Below, piece after piece: positions 4,398 through 44,417 of a stretch of 64,000 bases of DNA. The stretch is from a virus (taxonomy: Duplodnaviria > Caudoviricetes), in IMG/VR virus record IMGVR_UViG_3300012983_000031, positions 1-64,000 of that record; one strand, given 5' to 3'. The position numbers were made by a program, and so were the translations under genes. The notes under the pieces are model-generated. The model saw only the letters and a program-made list of their open reading frames with translations, made no database searches and was not told the DNA's origin. Each line of letters starts with the position of its first letter. Positions within the stretch are counted from its first letter, which is position 1.

Positions 4398-4413
4398 GAC
4401 TTACCGATTGCTT

Positions 4414-4902: not shown

Positions 4903-4944
4903 TATCTTAAACTGTATCTTTTTCACTATTTATCTAAATTATTA

Positions 4945-5742: not shown

Positions 5743-5747
5743 CTTAA

Positions 5748-9428: not shown

Positions 9429-9455
9429 TATATCGTTAAAATTAAATCTTTTCAT

Positions 9456-23719: not shown

Positions 23720-26700
23720 TTACTCTTCAGCTTCCTTATTCTCATCAATATCAGTGTGAATGACTCTGTGATATATGTCATCAAGACGACCCTTGTTCGT
23801 GTTTCCAGCATTCACCTTGCCAAGATATCCACAGATGCGAGCTGTAACATCAAGAGAATCATCATCATCATTTCCACAATTTGGGCAAATGAATTTGAAA
23901 ACACCATCTTCTGTTTTAATAAGTTGAATGTCACCTTCATATCCACAATGTTTACAAACACCTATTTTTCTATTAACCTCCGCATATATAATATGATTAT
24001 GCATCCACTGAATCATCTTGATAATCGCCTCTGGATTATTAACGAGATCAGCAGTTTCAACATAACTAACCGCACCACCAGATGATAACGCAAGATATTC
24101 ACCCTCAATTTCAAGCTTTTTAAATGCATCAATTTCCTCACGAGGATCTACATGATATGAATTTACGACATAATCCTTATCCGTAATCTTCGGAATCAAT
24201 CCAAAACTTTTACGAAGAGCAAGTGCAAATTTATATGTCAGCGATTCCTCTGGTGTTCCATAAATCGCATACATAATATTATCATTTTTCTTCCATTCAG
24301 AAAGAATATTATTTATATGTTGCATTATTTCCTTGCACAATTTTCGTCCTTTGTCTGTTGTATTAGATTCTCCTATCAACGCCTCTACGGTTTCATAGAG
24401 CCCAACATAACCAAGACTGACAGTTGAACGAGTAGGATGTTGATCCATCAATTCACCAACAGTCATGTCTGGTTCCATTCTTGACAATGCACCATACATC
24501 CACAATATTGGTGAATTCTTTGCCTTGATCTTTCTGCAAGATTTAACTCTTTCCTGCATCGCTCGTCTACACAATTCAAGCCAATTATCAAGATTTTCAT
24601 AGAAGTCAATTCCCCTCTCCTTAGATTCCAAAGCAACATAAGGAAGATTAATTGTTATCACACCATTATTCCAACGTCCATAAACCATAGGTTGTTTAAT
24701 AACAACTTCTGTATCTGTCTTTTTAATCAACCAACCTGTATTTCCTCTAAAATTGATAGAGTATTCACCATCATCGTATCCTGATTTATATTCTCCATTT
24801 GGCAAAGATTCAAACGATCTTGCATCAATAAACTCACAATACGGATAAACAGAGCCAGCAACCCAGAAAAACTTTGTATCAACTGGATATGTACGCTCTT
24901 CCCAAATAGGACCTAACAAAGAGCGACACCCCATCATCGGGATAATTTGACCCTGTTTGACCTCACGTGTCATCTTTTCAGAAACAATATCTGGCTGCAT
25001 TCTTTTTGCAATACATTCAGCTGCAAGTTCTGTCAGATAATAATATGGATCTGATTTTTTAACGTTTAACCCATCACACGTCCAATATAACAGCTTCGGG
25101 AACAATGGGCTGATATACTGACCACTCGCATCTTTTACGCCCTTTATACGGCGTTTTAGAACCTCCTCAATCAACATAGCAAAATCATCAAGCTCTTGTT
25201 GCGTCTGTGCTTCACGTAAACAAAGATTATTAGAAACGAAAGGTGTCTGACCATTAGCCGAAGAATGACAAAGAACCTGATACTGATAAATCTTCACACC
25301 TTCGGAGACTTCTTCACGAAGTTTAATCTCGGTAAGACGAACGATCTGTTCCTCTGTAATTTCAACACCTATATTTTTAGCATCATTTATGATATTTTTA
25401 CGAATAACCTTTCTCGATTGATTAATATACGGGACAAGATGAATCCACGACATTGTTTGACCACCATACTGCCTCCCTGATATTAGCAATGCAATTTGAG
25501 CAGCAAGGTTAACCATTGTTCTAAACGGTGTCTCACCATTAGGTTCTATCAACGTATCACCCATCACAAACCCATGTTCAAACATATTTTCAAGGTCATA
25601 TACATCACAATTTCCTGTTATTATTCCATTTTCAAGAGTAAATGTATGAGTAATTGGTTCATTAACACAATAAACATTAACTGATGGATTTCCACGTCTA
25701 AAACTTTCTATAGATTTAACAATCCAATATGAATCATTTTTTTGAGGCGGTAAAAATTTAAAATAACAATAATATCTATTTTCTTTATAATTTGTTGAAT
25801 TATATCCATCGCGCTTGATTGTTATAAAATAACCAGCCATTCCTGCACACTCCTCTATAAGTTCTATAACACGCGAATCTGATGTTTGAATACTATAGTC
25901 CTTTGTTCTACCATCAGCTGCATACAAACCTTCAAATAACAAAGCTTTATGTTTTGTTGACAGATATCTCCAACATCTACCATTAAGAAAATCTTGTTTA
26001 GATTTATATTTTGTATATGGTACCATGTCGCCATTAGACAAACATTTCATTCTATAACCAGCTTTTTCGAAAATGTGTGCATATTTATTTTTTGAACCAC
26101 ATAATCTACAAGTCATGTGTAATTGTTCGTGAGGTGTTTGATCGCTACCATCTCCAACAACAAAACCCATACACCATGCACGAGCGTCATCAATGGTTTC
26201 TATTTCTTGTTTTACATCTGGTCCATTTGTCTGCCACAATTTATCACCAACTTTTAACGATGTTGTAAAATTTCCATCACTTAACAACCATTTATGATCT
26301 GCTGTTGCGACAACCGTTCTTGCACCTGTTCCTTTTTTTCTCACAAATGTAATGTTATATAATTTTTGTGGTTCATATATATGAACAGTTGCCTCCCGAA
26401 ACGATCCAAGATAATCTTTAACAATAACCTTTTCTCCGTTTATAAAATCTGAAAATTTTCTTATACCTTTATCTGTGATAAATTTTTGAGATGGACCAAA
26501 ACAATTATGAAGTGGTTGAATTGGACTGTAATCAGCATCATGCCAATGAATGATTCCTTCATTATGTGCCTTAACAATATCCTTTGGGATAACTTTATTT
26601 GCTAAACCTTTACACATAATTCCTGCAATATAATCACGAATTGAAGCGTTGTCATCAATGTGCTTGTTCGCGTTATCACCTCTCAGCGAAGAAGTACCGT

Positions 26701-27019
26701 CAAGCAATGACATAATCTTTTCCTCATTACCTGTGAACTTCTTGCTTTGCCTCTTCTTATCCCTGTAAAGGATATAAGACTTTGCCACACTGTACTTGTT
26801 GTGGCGCACAAGAGCCTGCTCGACAAAATCCTGGATGTCCTCAACCTTTACAGAATTGAATCCAGTAAGCTTCTTCAACACAGTGTTTATCACTTTCTGT
26901 ATAGCCTCATCGTTCATCTGCTCATCTGGGCTTACAGTGGAGTTCGCCTTTCTAATTGCTTTCTCGATCTTATCAAGACAAAAGTCCTGTTCAGATTCAT
27001 TACGTTTAATTACCCGCAT
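23720..27019 (-). CDS. nrdD: Anaerobic (class III) ribonucleoside-triphosphate reductase with ATP-cone; contains an intein
   Basis: N-terminal ATP-cone MRVIKRN, QYGGQT, FPKL, MGCRS, TPEESL, NSYHV, CxxC...CxxC, RICGYL glycyl-radical motif. Confidence 0.95.
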   Translation of the reverse strand: MRVIKRNESEQDFCLDKIEKAIRKANSTVSPDEQMNDEAIQKVINTVLKKLTGFNSVKVEDIQDFVEQALVRHNKYSVAKSYILYRDKKRQSKKFTGNEEKIMSLLDGTSSLRGDNANKHIDDNASIRDYIAGIMCKGLANKVIPKDIVKAHNEGIIHWHDADYSPIQPLHNCFGPSQKFITDKGIRKFSDFINGEKVIVKDYLGSFREATVHIYEPQKLYNITFVRKKGTGARTVVATADHKWLLSDGNFTTSLKVGDKLWQTNGPDVKQEIETIDDARAWCMGFVVGDGSDQTPHEQLHMTCRLCGSKNKYAHIFEKAGYRMKCLSNGDMVPYTKYKSKQDFLNGRCWRYLSTKHKALLFEGLYAADGRTKDYSIQTSDSRVIELIEECAGMAGYFITIKRDGYNSTNYKENRYYCYFKFLPPQKNDSYWIVKSIESFRRGNPSVNVYCVNEPITHTFTLENGIITGNCDVYDLENMFEHGFVMGDTLIEPNGETPFRTMVNLAAQIALLISGRQYGGQTMSWIHLVPYINQSRKVIRKNIINDAKNIGVEITEEQIVRLTEIKLREEVSEGVKIYQYQVLCHSSANGQTPFVSNNLCLREAQTQQELDDFAMLIEEVLKRRIKGVKDASGQYISPLFPKLLYWTCDGLNVKKSDPYYYLTELAAECIAKRMQPDIVSEKMTREVKQGQIIPMMGCRSLLGPIWEERTYPVDTKFFWVAGSVYPYCEFIDARSFESLPNGEYKSGYDDGEYSINFRGNTGWLIKKTDTEVVIKQPMVYGRWNNGVITINLPYVALESKERGIDFYENLDNWLELCRRAMQERVKSCRKIKAKNSPILWMYGALSRMEPDMTVGELMDQHPTRSTVSLGYVGLYETVEALIGESNTTDKGRKLCKEIMQHINNILSEWKKNDNIMYAIYGTPEESLTYKFALALRKSFGLIPKITDKDYVVNSYHVDPREEIDAFKKLEIEGEYLALSSGGAVSYVETADLVNNPEAIIKMIQWMHNHIIYAEVNRKIGVCKHCGYEGDIQLIKTEDGVFKFICPNCGNDDDDSLDVTARICGYLGKVNAGNTNKGRLDDIYHRVIHTDIDENKEAEE
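25610..26503 (-). mobile_element. Intein (298 aa) with LAGLIDADG homing endonuclease in nrdD
   Basis: PLHN|CFGPSQKFIT...TADHKW...MGFVVGDGS...EGLYAADG...HTFTLENGIITGN|CDV. Confidence 0.92.
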
Positions 27020-27362: not shown

Positions 27363-27388
27363 AAAAGGAGGGAAAATCCCTCCTTTTT
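27363..27388. terminator. Bidirectional intrinsic terminator
   Basis: AAAAGGAGGGA-aaa-TCCCTCCTTTT. Confidence 0.9.
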
Positions 27389-28917
27389 TATATTGTGAAC
27401 GTTTTCTGCTTTACCGCATTTTCATCTTTCAAAACCTTTACACCAATCACTTCATTCCTCTTTCTACCTTTATATTCTTTTCCTTGCTCAAGTTCAAGAG
27501 GCTTAACGCTTTGAACATTATTCAGAACATCACCATACTCTAACAGAAAACTATCATATTCTTCACGAGCAGCATCAGATAAACCTTTCTTCAAAGCATC
27601 AACCTTCGCATTATACAGTTTCAACCCTATTGAAGAAGCACCATTAGCATTTCTGGATGTGACAACATACTTGTCACCATCCTTCATCGTCACCTTGTAC
27701 AAATCAGCTTTTTGATCCATGTTGCGATATATTTCACGGATAACGCTAACCGCGTATCTTGAATTAAACAACGATATCACATCCTTGACCTCATCATAAT
27801 CGTATGCTGGAAGGTTTATCGTGAAATTACCAAACCCTACCCTGTAATGTTCAAAACTTCCATATTTATAGACTGGCTTCGGGAGTTCATGCCGAACCCT
27901 GGTATTTCTTCGCTCTGGCTTATTTGTCGTGACAGCAAGAAACCTATCCTTCTCTGGAAGCTCAATCTTCTTTCCTCTCTCGACACCAACCTTGCCATCA
28001 AGAACTGGAGTGTCCAAATCATCAATCTGAACATTTCCTGGCATAACCTTGTTCATCTCATCACATAGACTTTTTCTTGTCAACAACGCCTCTTTTTGAG
28101 CTTGCTTCTGTGTTGGCGCAGACCAATAACATTTCTCACCATCAGAAAAATAAAATGTGTACTTAGGCATGCCTTTCTCAATTCTTGCATTCATCGTATC
28201 ATAACAAGGCTTTTCAGTTCGTTCGATGATAAGATTAGCCATCATCTTAGCATGTTCCTCTGAATCAGCTCTAACACGAATAATCTCTCCGTTAGACAAC
28301 GTAACCCAGTAAGGAACAAACACGGCATTCATCAACATGCTTTTAGCCTCATCCTTATCAAGTTCAGTTGAAGAATCCGCTGCATCTAATGACGAATCCT
28401 TTGCGAGTAACGCTGCACCAGCCGCTGCACCAGCTGCGCCTCCAGCACCAAGCAAAGCCTGCTTTGCCCTGTCAACCCATGAAGTCTCACTTTTATCTTT
28501 ACTTGATCCAAACAATGAAGATTTCGACGAAGACGATGAAGATGAAGATACACGAGAATGACCTAAATAATCTGTCCAATATCCAGGAGATAAAGTATTC
28601 ATCCATGAATTTTTATCTTCAAAATTTCTGCTGAATCTATTATACAATGCAGCAACTCCTGTCAACAAAGCAATAGGCCAACTAATAAACGATGTCAGCA
28701 AAAAACTTGGAATTGACTTAGCAAAACCAGAGAGACCGCTTGTTTTATATCCACCAGTCTGATCATAACCATACTTTTCTCTATGTCCTTCGTTTAACGA
28801 CTGAACAACTAAATCGGATCCATATGAAGAAACAAGATACTCAAGAATTTCTTTATCAAAATCGTCAATCTTCGGAACATTAAGAGATTCAGATGTATAT
28901 ATTGGCTGAATTATCAT
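27388..28917 (-). CDS. Late protein with hydrophobic helices and four small repeated domains; candidate head-internal protein
   Basis: GATAAATA at 28940-28947; SLNEG motif; SFLLTSFISWPIALLTGVAALY; poly-Ser linker. Confidence 0.8.
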   Translation of the reverse strand: MIIQPIYTSESLNVPKIDDFDKEILEYLVSSYGSDLVVQSLNEGHREKYGYDQTGGYKTSGLSGFAKSIPSFLLTSFISWPIALLTGVAALYNRFSRNFEDKNSWMNTLSPGYWTDYLGHSRVSSSSSSSSKSSLFGSSKDKSETSWVDRAKQALLGAGGAAGAAAGAALLAKDSSLDAADSSTELDKDEAKSMLMNAVFVPYWVTLSNGEIIRVRADSEEHAKMMANLIIERTEKPCYDTMNARIEKGMPKYTFYFSDGEKCYWSAPTQKQAQKEALLTRKSLCDEMNKVMPGNVQIDDLDTPVLDGKVGVERGKKIELPEKDRFLAVTTNKPERRNTRVRHELPKPVYKYGSFEHYRVGFGNFTINLPAYDYDEVKDVISLFNSRYAVSVIREIYRNMDQKADLYKVTMKDGDKYVVTSRNANGASSIGLKLYNAKVDALKKGLSDAAREEYDSFLLEYGDVLNNVQSVKPLELEQGKEYKGRKRNEVIGVKVLKDENAVKQKTFTI

Positions 28918-28958
28918 GTAAATAAAATGTAATTTACACTATTTATCCAACAAATAAA

Positions 28959-29004: not shown

Positions 29005-32000
29005 TTACGCAGTAGCCGCTCCACTTAAAGAATAAGATCCAGATTGGAAGCTTCTTGCTATTTTAACAACAGATCTGCATGCACCATCCAAGTCAACAAG
29101 GAAATCTGTAATATTTTCAGCATCAGTAGTATTCATAACTGAATCACAAATATCGTTAACATCTTTAATTTTTCCAAATGTCGTATTCATCCAATCAACA
29201 TCTCCATTTGTAATGATTGTATTTGCAAACTCAATAACTTTATTCAATTGATTTGAAATTCTTCGAACCATGTCGCCCTTTGTTGCAAAATGATCAATAG
29301 CGTCATCAGATGCTTTATTGAAATCAACATAATTAACAACATTTAATACGTTTTGCGCATTTGCTGAAAGTTTATCGAAAACATCTTTATAATTCTTTTT
29401 TACAGCATCAGACTTATCATGTGATTCCGAATCCTGCTGAACCACCTTCTTATTCTTATTATAATCGCTAAGTCTGTTCACCTTTTTCTGCACAATCTTT
29501 GCATATGTTTCAGATTTACCAGCAAGTGTACGATACAATTCACCAAACTTCCTAATGATTTTAATCATATCATTTGCATTTTCAATTATTTGGTTTTCAT
29601 CGCTTTGTGAAGGATCCATTATTTCTCCAAGATAATCAACAATAGATGTTGCATTTTCAATTATAATATCAACAACATCAGGTTTTTCATCAACGACATT
29701 GGAATTATTTCTGATATAAGCCTTGATCAAATCTGTGTAATTAATTATATTATCAACACACTCGTCAAATTTCTTAAGTTCAGCATTAACATTAGTATAA
29801 CCTTTTTTATCAAGAGCATCCTTATATACATTCTTTGCGTCTTTGAACATATCTTTATTATCAACGATATAATTAACAATATTATTAATATCATCATATC
29901 TATCGACTTTCTTAGCGACATTCTTGGATTCACCTGTACCTAAAATATCAGCCCTTTCACGTTCCCCCGTCTCTCTGTTATACTTATAATCCTTGATTGT
30001 TGAATACATTCCAGATTTATATATATCACGAGTGACAGTTTTGTTTATCCTATCCAACACCTCATCGTTAACATCAACACGAATATCATATTCTTTTTCA
30101 CATTTATCTGGGAACATCATAAGAACATCGAAAGGATTAGAGTGATCATATTTTGCACCGCCCTGTCCGCGTTCCTTTCCCTTAAATGACAACGTTTTCA
30201 ACGATGTTTTTATCAATTCAACATCCTTAACATTGTTTATCATTTCCAATAAAGTTTCACGATCCGCATCAATAATTTCATCGATATCAAATTTTGAATA
30301 GTCATCTACACCTCTCAAAGACGATCCAACAAGCAACGCCTTTATAAAATTATCAGAGAAGCAATCAAACACGTCCTTTTGATTTGAAGTGTTAAAATAT
30401 GCATGATTAAAATCGTCCTTTCTCTTTGGTTGAGAAGTAACAGACTGATCAAAATTAACGGTATCAACCTTTCCATATGTTGTGTAAATTTTATAAACAG
30501 CCCCATTTGAACTCTTTATATTATTTCCATAAAGATATCTCACAAGCCTGTCAAATATTTCTTCATCGGATGTTGCGTTCTCTGTAAACTGTGGTGCGAG
30601 CAGATCGTTTTTAAATGAATAATCGACAGCTTTAGCGTAACCAGCAAGCTTAGACATCATAAAATACAGAACATGCAGAGCTGCGCCTTCTACTGTTGCA
30701 TTCCGTCCTCTGCCATGAACAAGTGAGAATTTCTCTGGCAAGTTCTCTGGTTTCACGCCAACGCTATTCAAGAAATTAACAGTTTGCATAATGATGTTAA
30801 ATCTATCATCAACCTCTTTTTGGATTTCTTTTGGATCGGTAATTGCGTTTCCATCAGAATCACTCATATATACAATTGTTGGCTTTTTGCCTTTCTTAGA
30901 TTGTGCATAAACCGCACTAATAACATCATCAGATGTTGTAAATATGCGAATTCCTGCATAATCTAGCTGATTTATATTGTCTTTATTCTTTGCAAAATAA
31001 TTGCTATCCTTTGCAGCGAGACGAATCTGACTAACATCCGTAATAACAGTAATGTCATCATCTGATAATTCACCCCAATTAATTTCTATAAGAGGATCGA
31101 TAACATCAAAGAAAACATTTCTGTTTTTACGATAAAGTTCGGTAGAAGAAAGATAATCCTTATCCGTTATCTTGCTTCCAGACTGCGGCTTTGATCGTCT
31201 TGGAAAAATACTACTTAATTTATGAGGAAGAGCCATTTCATTAATGAACGATTCACTAAGAGCAACTCTATTCTTAATTATCTCATTTACACTTTCATCA
31301 TTTCTCTGTGTCATTGTGAATATGGATTTTGGTTTATTATCTTCATCATCAACAAAACCGATAGTTCTCTTAATCGATTTAATATAATCATTTTGCTCAT
31401 CTTTCTTAATATATCGACTCATAGGATAACTAACATTAATAGATACCCTTCCAGATACAGCTTCTGGTGCATTTTTAAATGTTCTCATGTTTGGAAGATT
31501 AAACATATTCAAATTTCCGCCAATTTCCTTTGGAAAGTTATCTGGGAATCCAGTAAATGTTCTATTGCTTCTAATTGAAACATCCCCAAACACCTGATCA
31601 ATATCCATAACGGAACAAGCATCACATAAATTCTGAATATTTTCATTATTTATATTCATATGCAAAATAACATGAGCATCTTCTGTTACATAATATGAAT
31701 CATCTGTATTCATTACAGCTGTATACTCTTTAACCATCTTACAATATGGAAAGAATTTTTCAAGATTTGCTACAAGTTCTGGAAGAACTTTTTCGAGTTG
31801 ACCTATCGCTCTGGCTCCCTGGATTTCACTCTTTCTTAGTCTATCATTTTTCTCTTCTTCAGAACGTTGAGAAGAATCCATCTGCGACTGCTGCTGTTTT
31901 TGTTTAATTTTATTTAATCCACCAAGAGCTTCATTTAAATTCAACCTTTTTTGCTTATTAATATTCATTGATTCATCTAATATTTGTTTTTTAAATGCAT

Positions 32001-34077
32001 TAACAGTAATTTCATAATGTCTGGAATATTTCGACACTAAGGTATCCATTTCTTCAGTAACCTCCTTTAAATACATATCGCTGTAATCATTATAAATTAC
32101 ATAAAGCATATGCTCAAGGGTATTCTTGCCAAGTTTATTAGCAAAAGGTTTAATGTTACCAGAATACTCCATACCAGAAACATCTGTAATAATTATAATT
32201 GCATTGATATCATATCTTAAATCATCATCTTCAACATAATTTTCAACAATATGCTTATATACATCATGAATATTTGTTCCACCGCCTGTAGATGCACCTT
32301 CTATACCCCATTCTTCATCGCTCACAACATAAGAATCAACATCAAAATGTTCATTATATACACCATCATCGAACAAATGTATATCAACGGTGTTAAAATG
32401 ACAATCTTGCATGATTTTTTCTATTTCTCCAATCATTATTGGAATAAGTTGTGTCTGTGAATTATTTATAGAGCCAGAAGTATCAATATAAACAACGCAT
32501 TTATTATAATCACTATATGATCTAACCCTATGCTTCAATCCTATTCCAGTTCTTTGATAAACATTCTTTCTAAGAGGACCCTTTTCATATGTATGAGATC
32601 TCTCTGAAATAAATTCCTGAAGAGCTTTCTTCCAATCTATAATACCTTCACGGCTCCTTCTAATACGACCTTGTATTTTATCCCTCATTGTATTAGCGGA
32701 AGACACAAGTTCTTTATCATCTTGCGGAGATGGCTTAAATATATCATTAATTATTGGAAATGCCTCTCTTATCATTGCATCCTCACTTTCACTCATACCC
32801 CAATCTGGATCTTTTGGATTGATTCCACGTTCTTTACGAATTTCATCACCAACATTTTGATCAATAACATGGGCACCTGTAAATAATTCATCCGTATCTA
32901 TAGATCCATTACGCATAATAATTACATCATCTGGAACATAAACATCTTTTACACTATCTTGCTTGTCTGTTAATTGATCAGTTGATGTACCAAAAAACAA
33001 ATCATGAATTTTATTTACACGCTTATCATCATCCAACGAAACATCATCAATAATATTAGCAATATCATCATCAAGAGATTCATTGACACTTTCAATTATT
33101 TTCATAACATCAAGATTATCAGGAAGTTCAACTTGATCTCTCATAATTGGGGCTAAACCACCATGATCGTACATTTCTTGTGCATATTTTTTTCCAAGAA
33201 TATATCCGATAGAATATTCATCAAGTTGAGGCATATTAGCATTCTGACCCTGCTGACCCTGCTGACCCTGCTGACCCTGCTGACCCTGCTGTCCTTGCTG
33301 TCCTTGCTGTCCTTGCTGACCCTGCTGACCCTGCTGACCCTGCTGTCCCTGCTGACCCTGCTGTCCTTGCTGACCCTGCTGTCCTTGCTGACCCTGCTGA
33401 CCTTGCTGACCCTGCTGTCCTTGCTGTCCTTGCTGTCCTTGCTGACCCTGCTGACCTTGCTGACCCTGCTGACCCTGCTGACCCTGCTGTCCCTGCTGTC
33501 CTTGCTGACCCTGCTGACCCTGCTGTCCCTGCTGTCCTTGCTGACCCTGCTGACCCTGCTGTCCTTGCTGACCCTGCTGTCCTTGCTGACCCTGCTGACC
33601 CTGCTGTCCTTGCTGACCCTGCTGTCCTTGCTGACCCTGCTGTCCTTGCTGACCCTGCTGACCTTGCTGACCCTGCTGACCCTGCTGACCCTGCTGACCC
33701 TGCTGTCCTTGCTGACCCTGCTGTCCTTGCTGACCCTGCTGACCATGCTGTCCTTGCTGACCTTGCTGACCCTGCTGATTTTTTAAATCATTATGCTTCG
33801 CGCTATGAACATTTTGTCCACTAGCATTTTGATCTAACTCACCTTGCTGGTTAGTTTGTCCTTGATGATTTCCAGAACCACCATCTAAATTATCATCACC
33901 ATCAGATGATGAACCATAAACTCCGTTTCCAGCACCACCAGCATCTTTCTTCTCAGAATCTGTTATACCAGAATTTGTAGAGTTATAAAGATCCTTAATC
34001 TTTTTAATTTTCTCTTGTTTTGTAAGAGTTTTATCTTTTAACAACCGATTTATCTCAGTCTTTACATCATAACGCAT
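29005..34077 (-). CDS. Giant vWA-domain protein with QQG low-complexity tract
   Basis: IDWKKALQEF, MIDAS VYIDTSGSI, GGGTN, IIIITD; 59 QQG units; long uncharacterised C-terminal region. Confidence 0.88.
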   Translation of the reverse strand: MRYDVKTEINRLLKDKTLTKQEKIKKIKDLYNSTNSGITDSEKKDAGGAGNGVYGSSSDGDDNLDGGSGNHQGQTNQQGELDQNASGQNVHSAKHNDLKNQQGQQGQQGQHGQQGQQGQQGQQGQQGQQGQQGQQGQQGQQGQQGQQGQQGQQGQQGQQGQQGQQGQQGQQGQQGQQGQQGQQGQQGQQGQQGQQGQQGQQGQQGQQGQQGQQGQQGQQGQQGQQGQQGQQGQQGQQGQQGQQGQQGQQGQQGQQGQQGQQGQQGQQGQQGQQGQQGQNANMPQLDEYSIGYILGKKYAQEMYDHGGLAPIMRDQVELPDNLDVMKIIESVNESLDDDIANIIDDVSLDDDKRVNKIHDLFFGTSTDQLTDKQDSVKDVYVPDDVIIMRNGSIDTDELFTGAHVIDQNVGDEIRKERGINPKDPDWGMSESEDAMIREAFPIINDIFKPSPQDDKELVSSANTMRDKIQGRIRRSREGIIDWKKALQEFISERSHTYEKGPLRKNVYQRTGIGLKHRVRSYSDYNKCVVYIDTSGSINNSQTQLIPIMIGEIEKIMQDCHFNTVDIHLFDDGVYNEHFDVDSYVVSDEEWGIEGASTGGGTNIHDVYKHIVENYVEDDDLRYDINAIIIITDVSGMEYSGNIKPFANKLGKNTLEHMLYVIYNDYSDMYLKEVTEEMDTLVSKYSRHYEITVNAFKKQILDESMNINKQKRLNLNEALGGLNKIKQKQQQSQMDSSQRSEEEKNDRLRKSEIQGARAIGQLEKVLPELVANLEKFFPYCKMVKEYTAVMNTDDSYYVTEDAHVILHMNINNENIQNLCDACSVMDIDQVFGDVSIRSNRTFTGFPDNFPKEIGGNLNMFNLPNMRTFKNAPEAVSGRVSINVSYPMSRYIKKDEQNDYIKSIKRTIGFVDDEDNKPKSIFTMTQRNDESVNEIIKNRVALSESFINEMALPHKLSSIFPRRSKPQSGSKITDKDYLSSTELYRKNRNVFFDVIDPLIEINWGELSDDDITVITDVSQIRLAAKDSNYFAKNKDNINQLDYAGIRIFTTSDDVISAVYAQSKKGKKPTIVYMSDSDGNAITDPKEIQKEVDDRFNIIMQTVNFLNSVGVKPENLPEKFSLVHGRGRNATVEGAALHVLYFMMSKLAGYAKAVDYSFKNDLLAPQFTENATSDEEIFDRLVRYLYGNNIKSSNGAVYKIYTTYGKVDTVNFDQSVTSQPKRKDDFNHAYFNTSNQKDVFDCFSDNFIKALLVGSSLRGVDDYSKFDIDEIIDADRETLLEMINNVKDVELIKTSLKTLSFKGKERGQGGAKYDHSNPFDVLMMFPDKCEKEYDIRVDVNDEVLDRINKTVTRDIYKSGMYSTIKDYKYNRETGERERADILGTGESKNVAKKVDRYDDINNIVNYIVDNKDMFKDAKNVYKDALDKKGYTNVNAELKKFDECVDNIINYTDLIKAYIRNNSNVVDEKPDVVDIIIENATSIVDYLGEIMDPSQSDENQIIENANDMIKIIRKFGELYRTLAGKSETYAKIVQKKVNRLSDYNKNKKVVQQDSESHDKSDAVKKNYKDVFDKLSANAQNVLNVVNYVDFNKASDDAIDHFATKGDMVRRISNQLNKVIEFANTIITNGDVDWMNTTFGKIKDVNDICDSVMNTTDAENITDFLVDLDGACRSVVKIARSFQSGSYSLSGAATA
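33247..33777 (-). repeat. 59 tandem 9-bp units encoding (Gln-Gln-Gly)n
   Basis: CAG CAR GGW units (one QHG), 531 bp. Confidence 0.97.
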
Positions 34078-34763
34078 TTTTCAACAAGACTTTCTTTTCG
34101 TAATTGATTAATAACTTCTGCAAAACCATCTGAAAAACCACGTTTCCATTCATCTGATGTCTTTGCAAGCTTTTTCTTGCGAACGATTTTTGGAATCTTA
34201 TCGTATATTTCTTCCCATGTCAACCCTTTTTTTCCATAATCATCATTATAACATCCATCGATAGCATTAGTAACACCCTTAAACGGAGAGTTTCCAGGAC
34301 CTTGTCTTAAAAAATTCTCAATTGTATAATTTATTTCATAATCCTGAGCCATATTAACTTTTTCAGAATCAGAATATTTATCAAGGCTTTCAGAATGTTT
34401 ATTACAATGATCAAACAAAATATGAAGTGCCTCATGAATAAGAACAAATTCCAAATATAACGGTCCTTTTTCCTCATCTTTATTGATTAAATATTCAGCA
34501 AACGCTGGATTAATAAAAATAGAAACACCATCAGTTGCCATTGTTGGAACATATGGACTATCTGTGTACACAATATCTTTATGCTTCATTATTCTTTCAA
34601 CGCTTGGAAAATATTGAGCAAGATCTTGCATAACGGCTTCAACTACCATAACAACAGTATCTATATCAACAACTGTACCGTCACTTTTTACCCAAATAGG
34701 ATTTCCAGTCTGAGATTCATTCAGACTGGAACCACATTTAGATTTATATTTAAGTATTAACAT
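34062..34763 (-). CDS. Zincin-like metallopeptidase (DUF2201 N-terminal type); start ATG 34763
   Basis: PTMATDG, LIHEALHILFDH (HExxH), NMAQDYEIN. Confidence 0.85.
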   Translation of the reverse strand: MLILKYKSKCGSSLNESQTGNPIWVKSDGTVVDIDTVVMVVEAVMQDLAQYFPSVERIMKHKDIVYTDSPYVPTMATDGVSIFINPAFAEYLINKDEEKGPLYLEFVLIHEALHILFDHCNKHSESLDKYSDSEKVNMAQDYEINYTIENFLRQGPGNSPFKGVTNAIDGCYNDDYGKKGLTWEEIYDKIPKIVRKKKLAKTSDEWKRGFSDGFAEVINQLRKESLVEKCVMM

Positions 34764-34767
34764 GTCA

Positions 34768-36786
34768 TCAAACCAATTCGTTTTTAGCAATAACATCTTC
34801 TTTATAGTTTGCTGCGTCAGCATAAGGTCCAGTTGTTGACTTCAAATCAACCCCAAACTCAAACCCGAACATTGTGCTTAAGGTTTTAAACCTATTTAAA
34901 TTAAATTGTCCAGAATCATAACAGCAAGCTTCCAAAAATTTCATAAAGTTAACAGCGGCATCTGGTGAAACCTTATCCTTTAACCCACCAGGATAATATT
35001 CCTTTAACAATGGAAATATATGTTTTGTAAAATATTCCTCAATGTTAGACGAATTCAATTTCTGCTGTTTTATAATTTCATATTTTGTATTATCACCCTT
35101 TGTCCATACATTAATTGCATCTTCTGGTTTGAATAAAGCAAATTGCGAAACAAATTGAGCAAAACGTTTTGCAACATCTCCACCAACAATACCAGAAGCA
35201 ATTTCTGCTAATGTCTTTGTTGGCATAGAAGAAATTGTTGAATATTTTTTTCCAAATTCATTTTCAAGACACTGATCAATAAGAGTTTCTGACAAAGCTT
35301 CCCAAGTACGAGGGTTAGCCGTTCCTTTCTCTCCATTTAATTCACCTGTTGGGTGTGTCCACATTTCATAAAAGTCTCCATAATTTTGAGGATCCCTTTT
35401 AATTTCACTTTCAATATAAGAAACTATATCGCTTAAAACATTTTTTCTTCCGCGTCTATGATTTGATTCCTGTCTTGCCCATTCTATCCAATCTTTTGGA
35501 TCTGGAACAAAATTACAATGGTTAAAACGAGTCTTTGATGCACCTTCAAATGACAATGCTTCCGCACCACCTCTACGACTCATATCTGATTTACGGTTTG
35601 CTGCACAAACAATAACCCATCGATCACCAAACTTTAATGTCGAATTTGAGCCAATTTCTCGTGTTGTTGGAGCTTGCATAAGAGCATCCATACCAGCTTG
35701 TGTCATACGAGAATATTCATCGATAAAGAAAATACCACCAGGACCGTTTTCTATAATATCATTTCCATTCTCATCTCTTACAAGTCCACCGCCGTTGGCT
35801 ATAGCATTCAAAAGTGCAGGATCTGCTTCCTCACTCTGCGGATTATAAACAGGCAACCAATTTTTTGGAAGATCCTTTATTGTTGTTTGTGTTGCGCCTT
35901 TAAAATCATCATTATCAGCATCCTCTATATCATTTGCCTTAAGTGTTCTAACAATCGTCGCTGGCATTGTGAAATCATCTGGTCCAACATTTCCTCCATT
36001 AATTGATATAATATTAATTGATTTTCCTGTTGTTTTCTGAACAACGCTTCTCAATGAACGAATAATAGATGTTTTTCCAATACCTGGAGCTCCCCATATA
36101 AACAACGGAAGTCCATTTGGTTTATTACCTTTATATCTACTCATGTATTCATTTCCGAGATAATTAACGATTTGTTCTGTTGTCCAATTGCAAAATGTTC
36201 CTTTTAAACTGATTTTTTCATTCTTTGCAAGGAAAGAATTCTCATCTTCAAATATAGCATCAATCAAGCTTGATGAAGTTTTTTCAGATTCATTTACATC
36301 ATCACCAAACTGAACAGCACCTTCATATGTGCCTGTAAATTCATAATTTTCAACAGCTTCTGGCTCAATTCCCAATTCATTACAAAGTTCTACAGTATCA
36401 CTTCCAGGAACATAATTCACACATGTTGTGTTTTTTGCACCCTCCATTGCATTAATAGGATGACTCGCTTCCAAAACATTTCCATCTTGATTCTTAAAAA
36501 ATACAAAATTTTCTGCTGTAAAAACATCAACAAAAAACTTCTTAACCTTTTCAGCAACATCCTTAACTTTACTTATAAATCTTTGTCCGTACTTGTTAAC
36601 ATTTTTTGCAGCATCCCTAACATAATCCAAAACACCTTCATCAATGTTGTCAAGATTGCTCACACGATTCTTTGGTACATTCTGAATAACACCGTTGTTA
36701 AAACGAACTATATAATCACCAGCGCTTTCGTTAAGAACCTCGCAATTAACTTTGTGATTACTATTTTTTAATTTATATTTTGCCAT
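34768..36786 (-). CDS. MoxR/dynein-related AAA+ ATPase with N-terminal extension
   Basis: WGAPGIGKT, FFIDE, CAANR, TRFNH, NPRTWE. Confidence 0.88.
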   Translation of the reverse strand: MAKYKLKNSNHKVNCEVLNESAGDYIVRFNNGVIQNVPKNRVSNLDNIDEGVLDYVRDAAKNVNKYGQRFISKVKDVAEKVKKFFVDVFTAENFVFFKNQDGNVLEASHPINAMEGAKNTTCVNYVPGSDTVELCNELGIEPEAVENYEFTGTYEGAVQFGDDVNESEKTSSSLIDAIFEDENSFLAKNEKISLKGTFCNWTTEQIVNYLGNEYMSRYKGNKPNGLPLFIWGAPGIGKTSIIRSLRSVVQKTTGKSINIISINGGNVGPDDFTMPATIVRTLKANDIEDADNDDFKGATQTTIKDLPKNWLPVYNPQSEEADPALLNAIANGGGLVRDENGNDIIENGPGGIFFIDEYSRMTQAGMDALMQAPTTREIGSNSTLKFGDRWVIVCAANRKSDMSRRGGAEALSFEGASKTRFNHCNFVPDPKDWIEWARQESNHRRGRKNVLSDIVSYIESEIKRDPQNYGDFYEMWTHPTGELNGEKGTANPRTWEALSETLIDQCLENEFGKKYSTISSMPTKTLAEIASGIVGGDVAKRFAQFVSQFALFKPEDAINVWTKGDNTKYEIIKQQKLNSSNIEEYFTKHIFPLLKEYYPGGLKDKVSPDAAVNFMKFLEACCYDSGQFNLNRFKTLSTMFGFEFGVDLKSTTGPYADAANYKEDVIAKNELV

Positions 36787-36816
36787 TTTTATATATTTTA
36801 GTTTTATTTTTCAATT

Positions 36817-37641
36817 TTATGCGAACACCCACTTGAACAAGGCGTTACTTTTCATTAAACCTACAAGATTATCAATAAACATATCTTTTTCCTTTAATGA
36901 AAGTGACAGATGGCTCGCCGTAAGCAAATTGTAAACAAACGTCTTAAATTCATTTTCTTTATTGCCGCTATCCCATCCAATCTTATTCAAGTAAGCAACA
37001 ATGTTTCTTGCGAACGTCCTGCATCGCGTGTTATCAGGTGTATATGATAGATCATCAATCTGTTCAAAAGCAAGACATATTTCAGCGAACATCTCATCGG
37101 TCTTGTTGAGTACAGATTCAAACAGCTTCTTACTGAACCTTGCATTAATCTTTACCTGTTCATCTATACAATTAGGTGATATGTTTCCTCCGTTCGCCGC
37201 AATTTTCTGATTAATTCCCATAAGTTTTTGATCCAAGTTCTTTATATTCATCTGATATGTATTTTTTAACATAAGTTTTTTATTCAACAATGTGTTTATA
37301 AGCACATTGGACTGAATAATCTTATTCTTTGTTATATCAGCCTGTTCATCATTTTCTGGTGCGATGTCCTCCAAATCATTTCTTTGCTTTATAATTGCAG
37401 ACGTTTGATCGTTGACATATTTTAGATTTGTTTGATACTGTGTCTTCAGTTGCGTCTTTTTTGTCATAATATCAGATGCATCCTGTTGTAAATCTGTTAC
37501 ATCAGAACTATATGATCCAGATTGATCGCCATCTTCCTTATTTTGGATATCAGTCTTTATTTCCTGGCTTGCATTGGTATCTCCGTTGCCATCCTGGATT
37601 TCATCAGCTTCTTCTATTTTATCAATAAACTTAATTTTCAT
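36817..37641 (-). CDS. Coiled-coil hypothetical late protein (start ATG 37641)
   Basis: GATAAATA at 37668-37675; KIEEA and LFESV motifs. Confidence 0.75.
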   Translation of the reverse strand: MKIKFIDKIEEADEIQDGNGDTNASQEIKTDIQNKEDGDQSGSYSSDVTDLQQDASDIMTKKTQLKTQYQTNLKYVNDQTSAIIKQRNDLEDIAPENDEQADITKNKIIQSNVLINTLLNKKLMLKNTYQMNIKNLDQKLMGINQKIAANGGNISPNCIDEQVKINARFSKKLFESVLNKTDEMFAEICLAFEQIDDLSYTPDNTRCRTFARNIVAYLNKIGWDSGNKENEFKTFVYNLLTASHLSLSLKEKDMFIDNLVGLMKSNALFKWVFA

Positions 37642-37708
37642 ACAATATTCAAACAAACGCGTTTTCTTATTTATCTGAAAAATAAATAAAAGAAAAAGAG
37701 CAATTATC

Positions 37709-38717: not shown

Positions 38718-39164
38718 TTAAATGTTGTAAATATTATCTGACAAGGAAACCCTCATGCTTTGAGGAAGTTTCATATAACCTAGATTTCGCCATCCTTTCG
38801 CAAATCCGTTTCTGCATATTGAAGTTATATATGCAAATGCGTTCTGGGTAACATTCTCGTTAAAGTCTTTAAAATACTTAATACAATCCCCGACAGCTGT
38901 ATAAATACAATCTATTTTATCCTCTTCATTTGTGTATTTTAATTTGTTTGATAGTTTCGTTGCAATCTGAACAAACATTTTAGCGAGTTCATCGCTTGCC
39001 TTTCCGTCGTTTTCCCTTTTGCATCTCAATATTTCAGCAAGAAGAACCGAATTTTTTACATAATGCTGTTCTTCTGGAGTTCTTCCTACACTACTAAGTG
39101 TTTCATCTACAAATTCTTCCCCACGCTTCTGGCAGCGAAGCTTTTCCTGTAATTTTGTTGACAT
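38718..39164 (-). CDS. gp55: Late transcription sigma factor, T4 gp55-like
   Basis: HYVKNSVLLAEI...ELAKMFVQIATKLS...DCIKYFKDFN...NAFAYITSICRNGF. Confidence 0.85.
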   Translation of the reverse strand: MSTKLQEKLRCQKRGEEFVDETLSSVGRTPEEQHYVKNSVLLAEILRCKRENDGKASDELAKMFVQIATKLSNKLKYTNEEDKIDCIYTAVGDCIKYFKDFNENVTQNAFAYITSICRNGFAKGWRNLGYMKLPQSMRVSLSDNIYNI

Positions 39165-39704: not shown

Positions 39705-42700
39705 TTAAGAAAGTGCTGCAATAGCACTCTCCATTAAACGTTCTGTTTCTGGCTTAAAGAAATCTTCAGATTCATTAATCATCAAATTTCCACCATTGAT
39801 ATAGCTTAAATGAGTTTCACCGTTGTCAGCAAAGATAAGTGTACGAACTGGAATTGTGGATTCATTCATCATCACATAATTCGAAAAGTCGCGAACGTTA
39901 ACAAGAACATCTGTTTTCTGAACAACACCTTCAACAACGAACGTCATTGTACCAGGAGAATAGTTAGCAAGATCCATAACATCGTTCAAATCTTCATTAA
40001 TTCTAACATACTTCTTCGCAACCTTTGTTTTCTCCCCTTCTATAATAATATTAATTTCTGTATTGTCAGATGCTTTCATGTATTCAAGAAGTTGCACTTT
40101 GCAGTCATTTGGAGTCACCTGTGTATTATTAACATACATTCCACAGTTCACATAACTCTCATAAATTCCGCGAAGAGTTGCCTCATCATACTTGAAAGGT
40201 GTGTCGACGAGATCTGGTCTTGCATATATCACCTCTACTTCATTCTTTGGGTATATTCTGGTATGACCCTGCACATTCACTATAAAATCACCATCAGCTT
40301 GCTTGCTAATAATCTGACCTTTAAGCCCGTCCTTACATTTAACGTAGTCAAGAACATTTGGTTCAGCGATACCGATACCTGCATTTGATTCATTCAACGC
40401 ATTTCCATCTTTGTCGGCAACAGATTCGTTTGATGCTTTTTTAGATTTAACCTTAAACTTAAACTTCTTCTTTGGTTTTTCTTCACTTTTCTCATTATCA
40501 GCATCGCCTTTATCCTTCTCGTCACCAGTTTCCTCACCATTTTCATCTTCATCATCATTATCTTCCTCACCAGCAGCTTCATCGGAGATAGCAGCGTCAC
40601 CCTTTTCCTCGTTCTTCTTCTGATCCTCTTCTTCCTTCTTCTTATCCTCGTCTTTCTTTTCATCCTTATCATCATCGGCAGAATCTTCATCATCCTTAAA
40701 TGCAAGACTTTCCTCTGGATTAAATGTCACGTTCTTGAACGAATCCTCAAAATCTGGTGTAACAGCTTCATCTTCGCCGCCTCCTGCACTCTTTCCGTTA
40801 AGTTCATCAGTATTGATTGTCACAGTTTTACCAGTTGAATCATCTTTTACAGTGATGGTAACATTTTCATTCACATGCTTGAAAAAATCCCTTGCTTCAA
40901 TTGGTGCAGAATCGCCGTAGAAAGATTCAAGAATCTTTTTAACGTTGTTGAAATCATCCTTAACAATATCAAGGTTCATGTTTTCATTCACAACATTAAC
41001 ATCAAACCCTTTAGACGTAAGCTTTTGTTTTAGAAAATTATTATAAGGAACACTCAAATTATAACAGCATGCACTTTCAGCAAGCTTTCCATATTTCTTT
41101 CCATATGCATCAAGAACATCAACAACATCTTGCTCTACGTTGCCATTGTTCTTCCTTGCATACATATAAAGAGATTCATAAATCTTATAAGCTTCCTGCT
41201 CATTCTCCGCAACAACACTGAATTGTTCATAATTTCCATGATTCTTTATATTGAAAATCTTCGCAATAGATTCATTACATGGAAGAATTATACGAAAGGA
41301 AGAATCGCTAATAGGCTTAACACCTTTAATTTGAACACCTTCATTAGCAGACATCACATTGATATGAGCTGGCTTATTATCAAAGCACTTTCTTAATTCT
41401 GGGAAATCATCACTGAACTGATCATCTGTATAAGAGAACCATTTCTTGTAATACTTTCTCAAAGCATTAGCCTGTGCTCTATTTGTAATCTTCAAAATAA
41501 CTTCTGTTTCATTACTCTCGCTCTTTGAATGCTCGATCTTAAGTTCGTCATCAAGATCCTTTTCAAAATCCTCCATATCCATTGGTGCTATCTCATCTGG
41601 AAGAAGACCTACAGAAATAGGATAGTTTGGAGTTTCATCCTCTGCATCCTTTGTTTCTGCTGGAGATTCTTTTGCAGCGGCATCATCGGATTCAAGATCT
41701 TCCTTTTTAACTGGAACTTCATCCTTTGTTTCAGTTTCCTTGAAATCTGGTGTTTCTACTGTAACGGATGTTTCTTTTTCATCTCCAAACATTGCTGGAA
41801 ACTCATCAGACGTTTCTTCTCCTGGTGCTTTCAATTCATTGTTTTCAGGTTCAACAACTGTATCGCCGCCAACAACAGAATCTGGCTTATTAGGGTCATT
41901 TTCAATAGCATCAACGATTTCAGTATACATATCAAGAGGCATGTACTCGTTATTGATGATAGGTTTCTTATCAGCATCAAGATAGAAGCTAACCTTACGA
42001 GTGTCATCATGAACATCGCCATTAGCATCAACAGATGGAATTAAAAGAAGAACTTCACCCTTGCCATTTGTCTTTCCGCTCTTAACATTCTTATTATACG
42101 AAACCTTCACAATCTGGAATCTTCCATAACCGATATCCTTTGTTGATTGACCTTCTTCTGGTGTGTCACTAACAGTAACAGATGTAGGAACATCAAAATC
42201 TGGATCATATTCAGCAACATCATCAAACTCTGATGGGAAATCCATATCTGAATCATCTTCAATATCTACTTCCTCTTCTCCACCTTCTGCACCTGTTATC
42301 GGATTTTCCATATCTTCCTTTGATTCCTTGTCTGGATCAAGTTCATCACCCTTCTTGTCATCATCTTCGCCATTCTCTCCATCTTCTCCATCACCGCCGT
42401 CAACATCATCATTCTTGTCACCATCTTCATCTCCAGTATCTGGAAGATCGTCCTTAAGACTATCATCCTCATCATCCTCATCACCGTTCAAATACTTATC
42501 AGCATCATCCTGATATTTCTTAAAGTCTTTCTTGGTGTCCTCAAGTTCTTTATCGATCATATCAATGGCATCATCAATATCCTTTGTGTCTGCAGCTTCA
42601 TCCTTCATACTCATGAGTGTCTTCTTCTTCTCTTCAAGTGAATCGATATAATCCTGATATTCCTTCTTCTTAGTCTCAATATCATGCTCAATCTTCTCCT

Positions 42701-44417
42701 GTTCTGGTAATTCATCCTCGAACAATGGAGAGCAATTGATTTCCATATGCTCATTTATATAATTGCGGCATTGTATCGGATTCACATTACGATAGAACGT
42801 AGAACGTCCAAGATTGCTGTTCGTTGTGTTTACGAAAATACTTTCTTTAAGCTTAAACACATCGCAAGATTTTCCGCTATTATCCTTTGATTCAATTCTC
42901 TTAACGAAATCAATATAAGCAATATCGTTATAATGTTCATTAAGAGCAACAGACATAGCATAGAACTCTGCATCATTACTTCTCATATTAATTGCAGATT
43001 CCATAAGTGACTTAAGCTCGTCAGTCGTAACCTCCTTATCATTAAGCAAAATTTCAGATTCATTGATGACACACTTGTTCTCATTTCCGTAAATTGTGAC
43101 AGAATTAAATTCTTGAGAGAAGCGAACGTTATCATTGTTGACAATATTGCAAAGAGCCTTGAACGATTCGCTCAAAGATGCCACCTCATTCTTTGTCAGC
43201 TTGGAAATTTCATTATTCTTTCTTGCGAAGTAAGCACCCTTTACATTGAACACACATTCGTTCTCCTTGATGTACTTAACTGGAGAAAACACCAATTCTG
43301 TCTTAACTTTATTGTTGAGGTATTCAACAGATTCACCGAGATAAACAGTATTTTCAATAGAAAGATCTCTTGTAATCAAGCATTCCATATCACGAACGAA
43401 CGGATCATACTCGAATGCCTCAAGTCTTTGAAGAAGAATGGTTCGCGTTGCCATGTTCTTATTATCCACATAATCGGCAACAACATCTTCAATAAGAGGA
43501 ACGATGTAATAAGATCCAGTCTGAGACATAGTTTCAAGAATCTTCTTAAGACTAATGTCTTGCTTATAACGGTTAACCCTGTCATTCAGAGCTGACAGTT
43601 CAGTATCAACAGCACTAAGATAATTCCAATTGGATATACCAGATATGAATGACTCATAAAGAAGTTCATCTGGCTTTCCGTTATTAAGGGCGTTAATGTA
43701 TTGCTCACAGAACACCTTAAGCTTCTCATTCTTATTGTTCTTGAGTATTGCTGCGATTGACTCACTTAACTTGATGTGATTAGGAATGGAATTCTTTGTC
43801 TTCTTTACGGCATTCTGTTTCTCAGTTTCCATTTCATTCATCTTGTTTGCCAAAATCTTGTCAACCTCATCCTGTGTGTATGTTTTAACTGGTTCAGCCT
43901 TAAACTCTTCCTTGAGAATAACATTTTGAAGAGTCTTTCCAGATTTCTCCTCATATTGCTCGAACTGAAGAGCCTCAAGAATTTGCTGAACAAGCGAATC
44001 GCTCTCGAACAAAGAAAGGTTCAGCTTGACATTATCACGCGTCGTCGAGTTCTTGTCAATCATATAATCAACAACTGCGGACTCAATCATTGGAGCGACA
44101 AACATGCATGAGCTGTTGTCAAGATTATAAACGCAATTAGCCAACTTGATGTTGGTCTCATTCATTTTGACGGATTCGTTGACTTCCTTAAGAACAGCCT
44201 TTGCTGATTCTGTATTGGCAATCTTTGCCAAATCATTCACAAAAGCCTCGCATATCTGCTCCTCTTTCATTCCGTCATTCAATTTCTTACTGTACTCGTT
44301 GCAGAAATTCTGCACTGCAATAGATTCAGACTCAGAAACTTTAAGTTTCTCGATTGATGAACGAATCGGCACGATGTTCACCATTGCAAGAGTCTTTTTA
44401 GTATTTGACATTTCCAT
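39705..44417 (-). CDS. Very large acidic protein, probable prohead core/scaffold
   Basis: 1570 aa; D/E-rich linkers; more than 20 [ILVMY]-x-E-S/[ILV]NE motifs; AATAAATA at 44460-44467. Confidence 0.75.
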   Translation of the reverse strand: MEMSNTKKTLAMVNIVPIRSSIEKLKVSESESIAVQNFCNEYSKKLNDGMKEEQICEAFVNDLAKIANTESAKAVLKEVNESVKMNETNIKLANCVYNLDNSSCMFVAPMIESAVVDYMIDKNSTTRDNVKLNLSLFESDSLVQQILEALQFEQYEEKSGKTLQNVILKEEFKAEPVKTYTQDEVDKILANKMNEMETEKQNAVKKTKNSIPNHIKLSESIAAILKNNKNEKLKVFCEQYINALNNGKPDELLYESFISGISNWNYLSAVDTELSALNDRVNRYKQDISLKKILETMSQTGSYYIVPLIEDVVADYVDNKNMATRTILLQRLEAFEYDPFVRDMECLITRDLSIENTVYLGESVEYLNNKVKTELVFSPVKYIKENECVFNVKGAYFARKNNEISKLTKNEVASLSESFKALCNIVNNDNVRFSQEFNSVTIYGNENKCVINESEILLNDKEVTTDELKSLMESAINMRSNDAEFYAMSVALNEHYNDIAYIDFVKRIESKDNSGKSCDVFKLKESIFVNTTNSNLGRSTFYRNVNPIQCRNYINEHMEINCSPLFEDELPEQEKIEHDIETKKKEYQDYIDSLEEKKKTLMSMKDEAADTKDIDDAIDMIDKELEDTKKDFKKYQDDADKYLNGDEDDEDDSLKDDLPDTGDEDGDKNDDVDGGDGEDGENGEDDDKKGDELDPDKESKEDMENPITGAEGGEEEVDIEDDSDMDFPSEFDDVAEYDPDFDVPTSVTVSDTPEEGQSTKDIGYGRFQIVKVSYNKNVKSGKTNGKGEVLLLIPSVDANGDVHDDTRKVSFYLDADKKPIINNEYMPLDMYTEIVDAIENDPNKPDSVVGGDTVVEPENNELKAPGEETSDEFPAMFGDEKETSVTVETPDFKETETKDEVPVKKEDLESDDAAAKESPAETKDAEDETPNYPISVGLLPDEIAPMDMEDFEKDLDDELKIEHSKSESNETEVILKITNRAQANALRKYYKKWFSYTDDQFSDDFPELRKCFDNKPAHINVMSANEGVQIKGVKPISDSSFRIILPCNESIAKIFNIKNHGNYEQFSVVAENEQEAYKIYESLYMYARKNNGNVEQDVVDVLDAYGKKYGKLAESACCYNLSVPYNNFLKQKLTSKGFDVNVVNENMNLDIVKDDFNNVKKILESFYGDSAPIEARDFFKHVNENVTITVKDDSTGKTVTINTDELNGKSAGGGEDEAVTPDFEDSFKNVTFNPEESLAFKDDEDSADDDKDEKKDEDKKKEEEDQKKNEEKGDAAISDEAAGEEDNDDEDENGEETGDEKDKGDADNEKSEEKPKKKFKFKVKSKKASNESVADKDGNALNESNAGIGIAEPNVLDYVKCKDGLKGQIISKQADGDFIVNVQGHTRIYPKNEVEVIYARPDLVDTPFKYDEATLRGIYESYVNCGMYVNNTQVTPNDCKVQLLEYMKASDNTEINIIIEGEKTKVAKKYVRINEDLNDVMDLANYSPGTMTFVVEGVVQKTDVLVNVRDFSNYVMMNESTIPVRTLIFADNGETHLSYINGGNLMINESEDFFKPETERLMESAIAALS

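Follow-up and report, generated by a model that had tools for sequence, protein, structure and literature searches.

In pairs of a MoxR-like AAA+ ATPase and a vWA protein, the vWA partner serves as adaptor for the ATPase ring, and bacterial RavA-ViaA resembles the system described here in joining an AAA+ motor to a vWA adaptor. A MoxR AAA+ ATPase with a metallopeptidase-vWA pair has been described in group 2.2 jumbo phages (Iyer et al., 2021, PMC7824862). That pair (PF13203/PF09967, PHROG 1297/1314) shares with our locus a homologous ATPase, an HExxH zincin and a vWA domain with a MIDAS, all in one neighbourhood, so the claim of a new system made for this DNA in a first-pass annotation does not stand; tagging, fission and cargo are what make our locus a variant of the known pair. 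In PA5oct, a RaK2-like phage, the ATPase is untagged and 371 aa long, has a fused partner of 394 aa and falls on the other side of the ATPase tree, whereas our locus has leaders, a partner whose split falls inside DUF2201_N and some 990 aa of appended modules. Because PA5oct lies on the untagged side, the Iyer-type system is probably the untagged, fused form, and ours is a split variant of the DUF2201 peptidase-vWA proteins rather than a typical member. The module goes unmentioned in the main text of the papers on PA5oct and on Atu_ph07, an example used by Iyer et al. The MoxR-vWA pair of Acidianus two-tailed virus, cited in PMC7824862, also combines an AAA+ motor with a vWA adaptor but has neither peptidase nor capsid tags. 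A single-protein scan of viral contigs found nothing.

The locus also bears comparison with proteins packaged into phage heads. Prohead proteases of T4-type and giant phages cleave after glutamate (PMC9026906, PMC5694885), and the short propeptides of T4 are capsid-targeting sequences for cargo that is later ejected into the host (PMC9026906). The gp21-processed T4 proteins IPI-III and Alt (PMC9026906) are like the proteins considered here in their short N-terminal propeptides with a hydrophobic-x-Glu-type end and in their late-type expression, and T4-like head genes occur in relatives of our phage as well. Our locus differs from them in its multi-subunit ATPase cargo, leaders of 100-450 aa, internal paired sites and lack of sequence homology. 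The ejection proteins of SPN3US and phiKZ have redundant cleavage sites in long pro-regions, as here (PMC5694885, PMC10052503), but these phages belong to another group and use an A-x-E motif, and the sections of those papers on substrates report no MoxR system.

The window, the whole stretch of DNA analysed, is the first 64 kb of a 220-kb virus record that is about 60% complete. The phage is T4-like, large and uncultured, and its nearest named ATPase relatives are Lak phages, at ~26% identity. The operon, with a gp55-like sigma gene nearby (38718-39164), contains the following features.

37668-37675, minus strand: GATAAATA, T4-late-like promoter element heading the operon (enrichment and relatives)
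36817-37641, minus strand: coiled-coil protein, 274 aa, first gene in 10 related loci
34768-36786, minus strand: MoxR-like AAA+ ATPase, 672 aa, with a ~180-aa pro-region (PHROG 1297, E 3e-25)
36070-36093, minus strand: Walker A of the ATPase, residues 232-239 (G232, A233, P234, G235, G237 and K238 invariant in A1)
34703-34731, minus strand: RNA hairpin in the peptidase leader codons, directly past the ATPase stop (stability and covariation)
34062-34763, minus strand: zincin peptidase, 233 aa, N-terminal part of DUF2201_N (PF13203, E 1.7e-7)
29005-34077, minus strand: vWA-chain protein, 1690 aa, made up of hairpin, linker, docking helix, rest of DUF2201, vWA domain, solenoid module and C-terminal module

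The four co-oriented, packed genes that the first-pass annotation had placed behind one promoter are real, as are the promoter element and the gene order. All are minus-strand ORFs, the vWA chain overlaps the peptidase by 16 nt, and the order coiled-coil, ATPase, peptidase, vWA chain is common to the ten close relatives fetched (10/10). The window holds 17 copies of GATAAATA against 5.1 expected, and 31 of the 43 copies in the genome adjoin an ORF start, usually ~30 nt before the start codon. Either GATAAATA or its one-base variant AATAAATA lies ahead of the first operon gene in 9/9 relatives, and the ATAAATA core is found upstream of the capsid and protease genes in a fuller relative. Likeness to the T4 late box suggests late timing for the operon; a scan for sigma-70 promoters stayed at chance level. 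A second GATAAATA within the peptidase gene (34375-34382, minus strand), ~300 nt before the vWA start and shared with three relatives (L004, L252, L253), may be an internal promoter or a mere coding coincidence. Past the operon, a 509-aa gene (27388-28917, minus strand) has its own GATAAATA at 28940-28947, a leader motif and a Ser-rich stretch; there is no terminator-like site between it and the operon, and downstream genes of similar size are seen in some relatives.

The coiled-coil ORF starts at an ATG 34 nt downstream of the promoter. Its product, which has no family match, comprises a short leader with a motif variant, a variable coiled coil, a motif-bearing internal linker and a conserved C-terminal helical domain. 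Maturation-like motifs had been ascribed to all four proteins, and this holds for the ATPase, the peptidase and the vWA chain; the coiled-coil protein of the window has variants only and no strict N-E, although its homologues do carry the strict motif.

The hairpin after the ATPase stop is the most stable 60-nt window of the operon (rank 1 of 1430, z -5.5). Of 11 split-clade relatives, seven reach a z of -3.2 or lower at the same position, often on a sequence that is unrelated, and in the few sequences that could be aligned (four copies) all 11 pairs are kept, with compensatory changes in two. Lak-A1, L187 and L193 instead have terminator-like hairpins between genes. The hairpin may act as a partial terminator or 3' stabiliser favouring ATPase synthesis, which would fit a hexamer with fewer partners.

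The ATPase, HExxH and MIDAS motifs, reported as intact from the sequence alone, are indeed so, and their key residues are conserved across homologues. In the ATPase, D356/E357, N397, R420 and P492-R493 (Walker B, sensor 1, Arg finger and sensor 2) are also invariant in A1; hhalign to the PA5oct ATPase gives 99%, tblastn finds weak matches to MoxR-annotated genes of Staphylococcus jumbo phages, and the AAA_5 match (E 0.006) is below cut-off. The N-terminal extensions with N-E motifs noted in the ATPase and the peptidase are leaders with putative cleavage sites: among 59 non-redundant homologues the putative cleavage glutamates E20, E50, E166 and E180 of the ATPase are conserved at 0.98, 0.95, 1.0 and 0.90, with flanks at 0.30-0.62. 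E20 falls in what is predicted to be a small beta domain, where its role may be structural. By eye, the first ~47 ATPase residues (36646-36786, minus strand) resemble a small SH3-type beta domain, a segment present in Lak ATPases too, with similar segments at the end of a 1570-aa protein encoded nearby.

Leaders of huge-phage ATPases span about 70-500 residues, and the viral rows of the ATPase alignment hold 95 hydrophobic-N-E motifs over 9,167 residues of leader, compared with 15 over 22,143 residues of core (~15-fold); in bacterial and many other phage copies, Walker A lies ~45 residues or less from the start and there is no motif. In the ATPase tree, built with a quick search method and with rows labelled by pattern, one side of 92 rows (SH-aLRT 100) includes 81 of the 83 leader-bearing rows, and the other, of 120 rows from bacteria, other phages and PA5oct, has essentially no leaders. 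Judged from these sequences, the tagged ATPases appear to form a separate huge-phage branch that includes Lak. The short N-terminal leader of many distant ATPase homologues is similar to the targeting sequence of T4. In seven relatives (L043, L091, L179, L180, L183, L184 and L186) the module is larger, with ATPases of ~930-1000 aa that have up to six leader motifs and are flanked by several genes of ~600-650 aa. Preparations of virions from PA5oct, which belongs to the untagged branch, and from UFV_DC4, whose authors voice caution about contamination (PMC10638138), have yielded distant ATPases of the family; these detections are weak evidence, the homologues being untagged or unexamined and possibly contaminants.

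The PF13203 match to the peptidase is above cut-off and covers positions 31-142 of the 271 in the profile. The protein has a leader site at E16, HExxH at 110-114, a C-terminal GxxxG helix and a terminal L-[VI]-E228; H110, E111, H114 and the downstream Asp ligand D141 are invariant. Since the first part of PHROG 1314 matches the peptidase and the second part the vWA chain, the two genes together make up one DUF2201-type protein, each encoding a half. The earlier remark that two domains often found in one DUF2201-type chain are separate here extends to all close relatives: ten loci have separate genes, with varying junction frames. A programmed frameshift or an assembly error at the junction was rejected, as frames and spacing vary and the start is conserved. 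L005 and L251 seem to be split further, but these breaks are errors of the gene caller, with an upstream ATG in frame. The fused form occurs in Lak-A1, L171, L173 and L256, and split and fused states are interleaved among the huge-phage tree rows, which suggests repeated fission.

No solved relative of the peptidase was found by sequence. A complex model of the peptidase with vWA residues 284-702 scored 0.85, a mark reached by 58 of 80 solved pairs and two of 110 mismatched pairs; the highest score among three controls was 0.00. Runs share at least 88% of contacts, and partner pLDDT is at least 84. The pairing of GxxxG helices, forecast ahead of modelling, appears in the model, where vWA G295, Y292 and A299 contact peptidase F210, G213 and F214. 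The model supports binding between the two proteins, in a test that halves of split genes tend to pass. The parts of the vWA chain up to the vWA domain are as follows.

33244-33778, minus strand: Gly-Gln-Gln repeat, 59 copies, predicted disordered linker (repeat count and homologues)
33163-33222, minus strand: GxxxG docking helix, residues 286-305, predicted partner of the peptidase C-terminal helix (complex model)
33076-33087, minus strand: putative cleavage site E333 (conservation 0.85 versus flanks at 0.48)
32869-32871, minus strand: H403, which does not vary within the clade; the model places its segment against the active-site strand of the peptidase
31978-32505, minus strand: vWA domain with MIDAS residues D532, S534, S536, T601 and D632 (PF09967 and PF13519 below curated cut-offs)

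The repeat, which the first description of the chain had passed over, occupies a place where most homologues have a G/Q/N/S linker of 130-670 aa without Gly-x-x periodicity (longest run 0-5, with 28 in L005). A collagen triple helix was rejected: the Pfam Collagen match is due to the repeat alone, and the periodicity is absent from most homologues. The linker is 670 aa long and rich in Q/A/S/G in L254 (3159-9407) and is an 8-residue tandem repeat in L255 (12930-14786). The chain has no N-terminal leader. A helical hairpin is duplicated, with a basic copy at the N terminus (33973-34077, minus strand) and an acidic copy directly past E333 (32974-33078, minus strand), and the two might pair and loop out the linker. 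MIDAS residues D532, S534, S536 and D632 are invariant and T601 is nearly so, and PF09967 is found, below its curated cut-off, in 12 of 15 members. That H403 acts as a zinc ligand or inhibitor is speculation.

The hydrophobic-N-E motif is short and common, and its counts in single proteins are not significant (four in the vWA chain versus 1.4 expected, p=0.055). The signal comes instead from conservation across homologues: E333, E702, E716, E928 and E947 of the vWA chain are kept in 85-100% versus about 45% for flanks, so that conservation in related phages, the check proposed at the outset, finds the sites kept at domain borders. Motifs are at chance level in the control proteins NrdD, gp15-like and gp55-like, and enriched 3.3-fold in the adjacent 1500-aa protein. 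They lie within the first 75 residues, the propeptide region, of 120/120 related capsid proteins, a closely knit set, and of four that are more distant; in a protease-scaffold fusion they also come C-terminal to the protease domain. An ordinary cytoplasmic MoxR/vWA/peptidase chaperone with chance or compositional motifs would suit the non-significant counts and the wide spread of the untagged family in bacteria, but it is hard to square with the ~15-fold leader enrichment, the position-specific conservation, the chance-level controls and the late-type promoter, and we consider it highly improbable.

The proposal of capsid packaging and maturation is, by contrast, well supported by comparison as regards head targeting and prohead-protease processing. 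Given its capsid-type tags, the module probably travels inside the virus particle, and we regard its packaging and processing together as quite probable. The phage's own capsid (gp23) and gp21-type protease genes were not found in this ~60%-complete contig, and the cleavage-site specificity is therefore borrowed from relatives, four of which have both genes; an S77 protease is encoded by 4/4 relatives tested. Motif-bearing genes at 3849-9455 (minus strand) are like the immediate upstream neighbours of the protease and capsid genes in the relative G001, but the head genes seen there do not follow here. Upstream of the operon lies the gene for an acidic 1570-aa protein (39705-44417, minus strand), kept there in relatives, with 12 motifs versus 3.3 expected; this is probably a prohead core or scaffold-like protein. 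Elsewhere in the window, the NrdD gene for anaerobic ribonucleotide reductase (23720-27019, minus strand) encodes 1099 aa, a length that suggests an intein, as annotated in the L007, L253 and L254 homologues.

The remainder of the vWA chain is divided as follows.

31930-31974, minus strand: double putative cleavage site E702/E716 in a low-confidence linker (0.95 each versus flanks at 0.42-0.46; pLDDT <50)
31294-31929, minus strand: Module 1, residues 717-928, helices and a short L-domain/LRR-like beta-solenoid (AF2 model)
31237-31296, minus strand: double putative cleavage site E928/E947 (0.85 and 1.00 versus flanks at about 0.4)
29008-31236, minus strand: Module 2, residues 948-1690, 743 aa, an alpha/beta domain (948-1380) and two helical bundles (model)

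The ~1000 extra residues, described as cut by N-E motifs, measure about 990 aa, with conserved sites at E702, E716, E928 and E947 (rank 1 of 89 glutamates). The VNE site at E932 drops out, with a conservation of 0.20 against 0.85 for E928, and E333 and E702 had been overlooked. Residues 948-1690 contain no conserved hydrophobic-N-E motif, so the tail splits into two modules only. The two LRR-like units turn out to be coils of one beta-solenoid domain in Module 1, for which fold searches gave weak receptor L-domain leads. The first 433 residues of Module 2 (948-1380), which is known from 22 relatives only, are modelled with pLDDT 81 and pTM 0.78, and the module has no fold match (best VIA Z 3.8, Atlas TM 0.30 or less). 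For the tail, Foldseek gave no match at E<1e-3 against PDB and viral structures, VIA returned generic helical bundles or Z of 3.8 or less, Atlas gave TM 0.30 or less with feature scores <0.9, and Pfam and NCBIfam showed no families. Several weak VIA rows with a papain-like fold were rejected, there being no conserved Cys or His in the alignment, and no conserved catalytic residues were seen in the alignment of either module. The idea of a polyprotein that releases effectors thus survives in a weak form, with two modules but no identifiable enzyme fold and no conserved catalytic residues, and with the alpha/beta domain unmatched, 'passengers' is a safer word than 'effectors'.

If only the leaders were removed, the internal motifs of the vWA chain would be core-binding or structural and the tail would stay on as a substrate-recognition arm. 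A solenoid and helical bundles without catalytic residues or an enzyme fold suit binding, and about 80% of head proteins of SPN3US are uncleaved (PMC10052503). The tail sites are, however, paired and placed in linkers modelled with low confidence, no other glutamate in the tail is as well conserved, and the modules also occur as separate genes with leaders, so we find this reading unlikely. Fission points coincide with motif sites in L173, L255, L007, L009, P0127 and P0132. Between its docking helices, fused L173 carries motif-like sites; this is the point at which a stop codon follows the conserved L-[VI]-E in the split clade. The vWA gene of L255 ends at the E702/E716 border, with a separate gene for a tail whose likeness was judged by eye and which the profile did not detect; P0127 and P0132 are stand-alone tails, each with its own leader, and L007 and L009 have extra, motif-flanked single-module copies (Module 2 in L007, E 7e-4; Module 1 in L009, by eye). 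The strongest case for reading the sites as marks of functional units comes from these gene breaks.

We favour a packaged, processed, modular machine, with near even odds on its site of action, and give this reading a probability of roughly 0.58. A late promoter would drive the operon, the hairpin yielding excess ATPase message for the hexamer. The separate peptidase and vWA chain would join non-covalently, as modelled, into the equivalent of a fused DUF2201 protein, with the vWA domain as adaptor for the ATPase ring by analogy with known pairs. As in T4, leaders on the ATPase, peptidase and coiled-coil protein and the internal motif linkers of the vWA chain would anchor the proteins in the prohead core, where a gp21-type prohead protease would trim the machine by cleavage after glutamate. 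This would free an ATPase of ~55 kDa, a peptidase of ~24 kDa and a vWA adaptor of ~44 kDa, together with two passengers of ~24 and ~84 kDa. At infection the pieces may then be released from the head and engage a host protein complex, in the manner of T4 Alt and the IP proteins.

Given packaging, we put such action on a host complex after exit at about even odds. Alternatively, the module could be targeted to the prohead and work there as a maturation chaperone or protease, clearing or rearranging core proteins or loading cargo, to be later discarded or left inert. Iyer et al. propose a role in virion assembly and structural-protein processing (PMC7824862), the conserved synteny with a gp15-like gene and with a core-like protein of 1500 aa that is rich in motifs agrees with this, and the ATP that the ATPase requires is present in the producing cell. 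Yet an untagged sister branch occurs in bacterial contigs and the peptidase in small N4-like phages without a T4-type head, so the core activity is not head-specific, and the passengers are variable and shuffled among genes, which is more typical of host-directed cargo. We hold this prohead role to be doubtful. For the packaged machine, the newly infected cell is slightly favoured, since its untagged ancestor has no need of a T4-type head and the passengers are variable. Only tentatively do we extend this to the huge T4-like branch as a whole, Lak included, which might inject an ATP-dependent unfoldase-protease whose vWA chain is a carrier polyprotein releasing exchangeable passengers of new fold, with fission and cleavage interchangeable.

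The MoxR/DUF2201 pair is widespread, and head-targeting tags in one branch indicate where and when the pair acts. If the proposal is true, an injected ATP-driven protease would be a means of host takeover or counter-defence that we did not find described in the literature searched. With the motif one can predict, from sequence only, which proteins of uncultured huge phages are head cargo and where their domains meet, and here it delimits a well-modelled domain without a fold match (948-1380).
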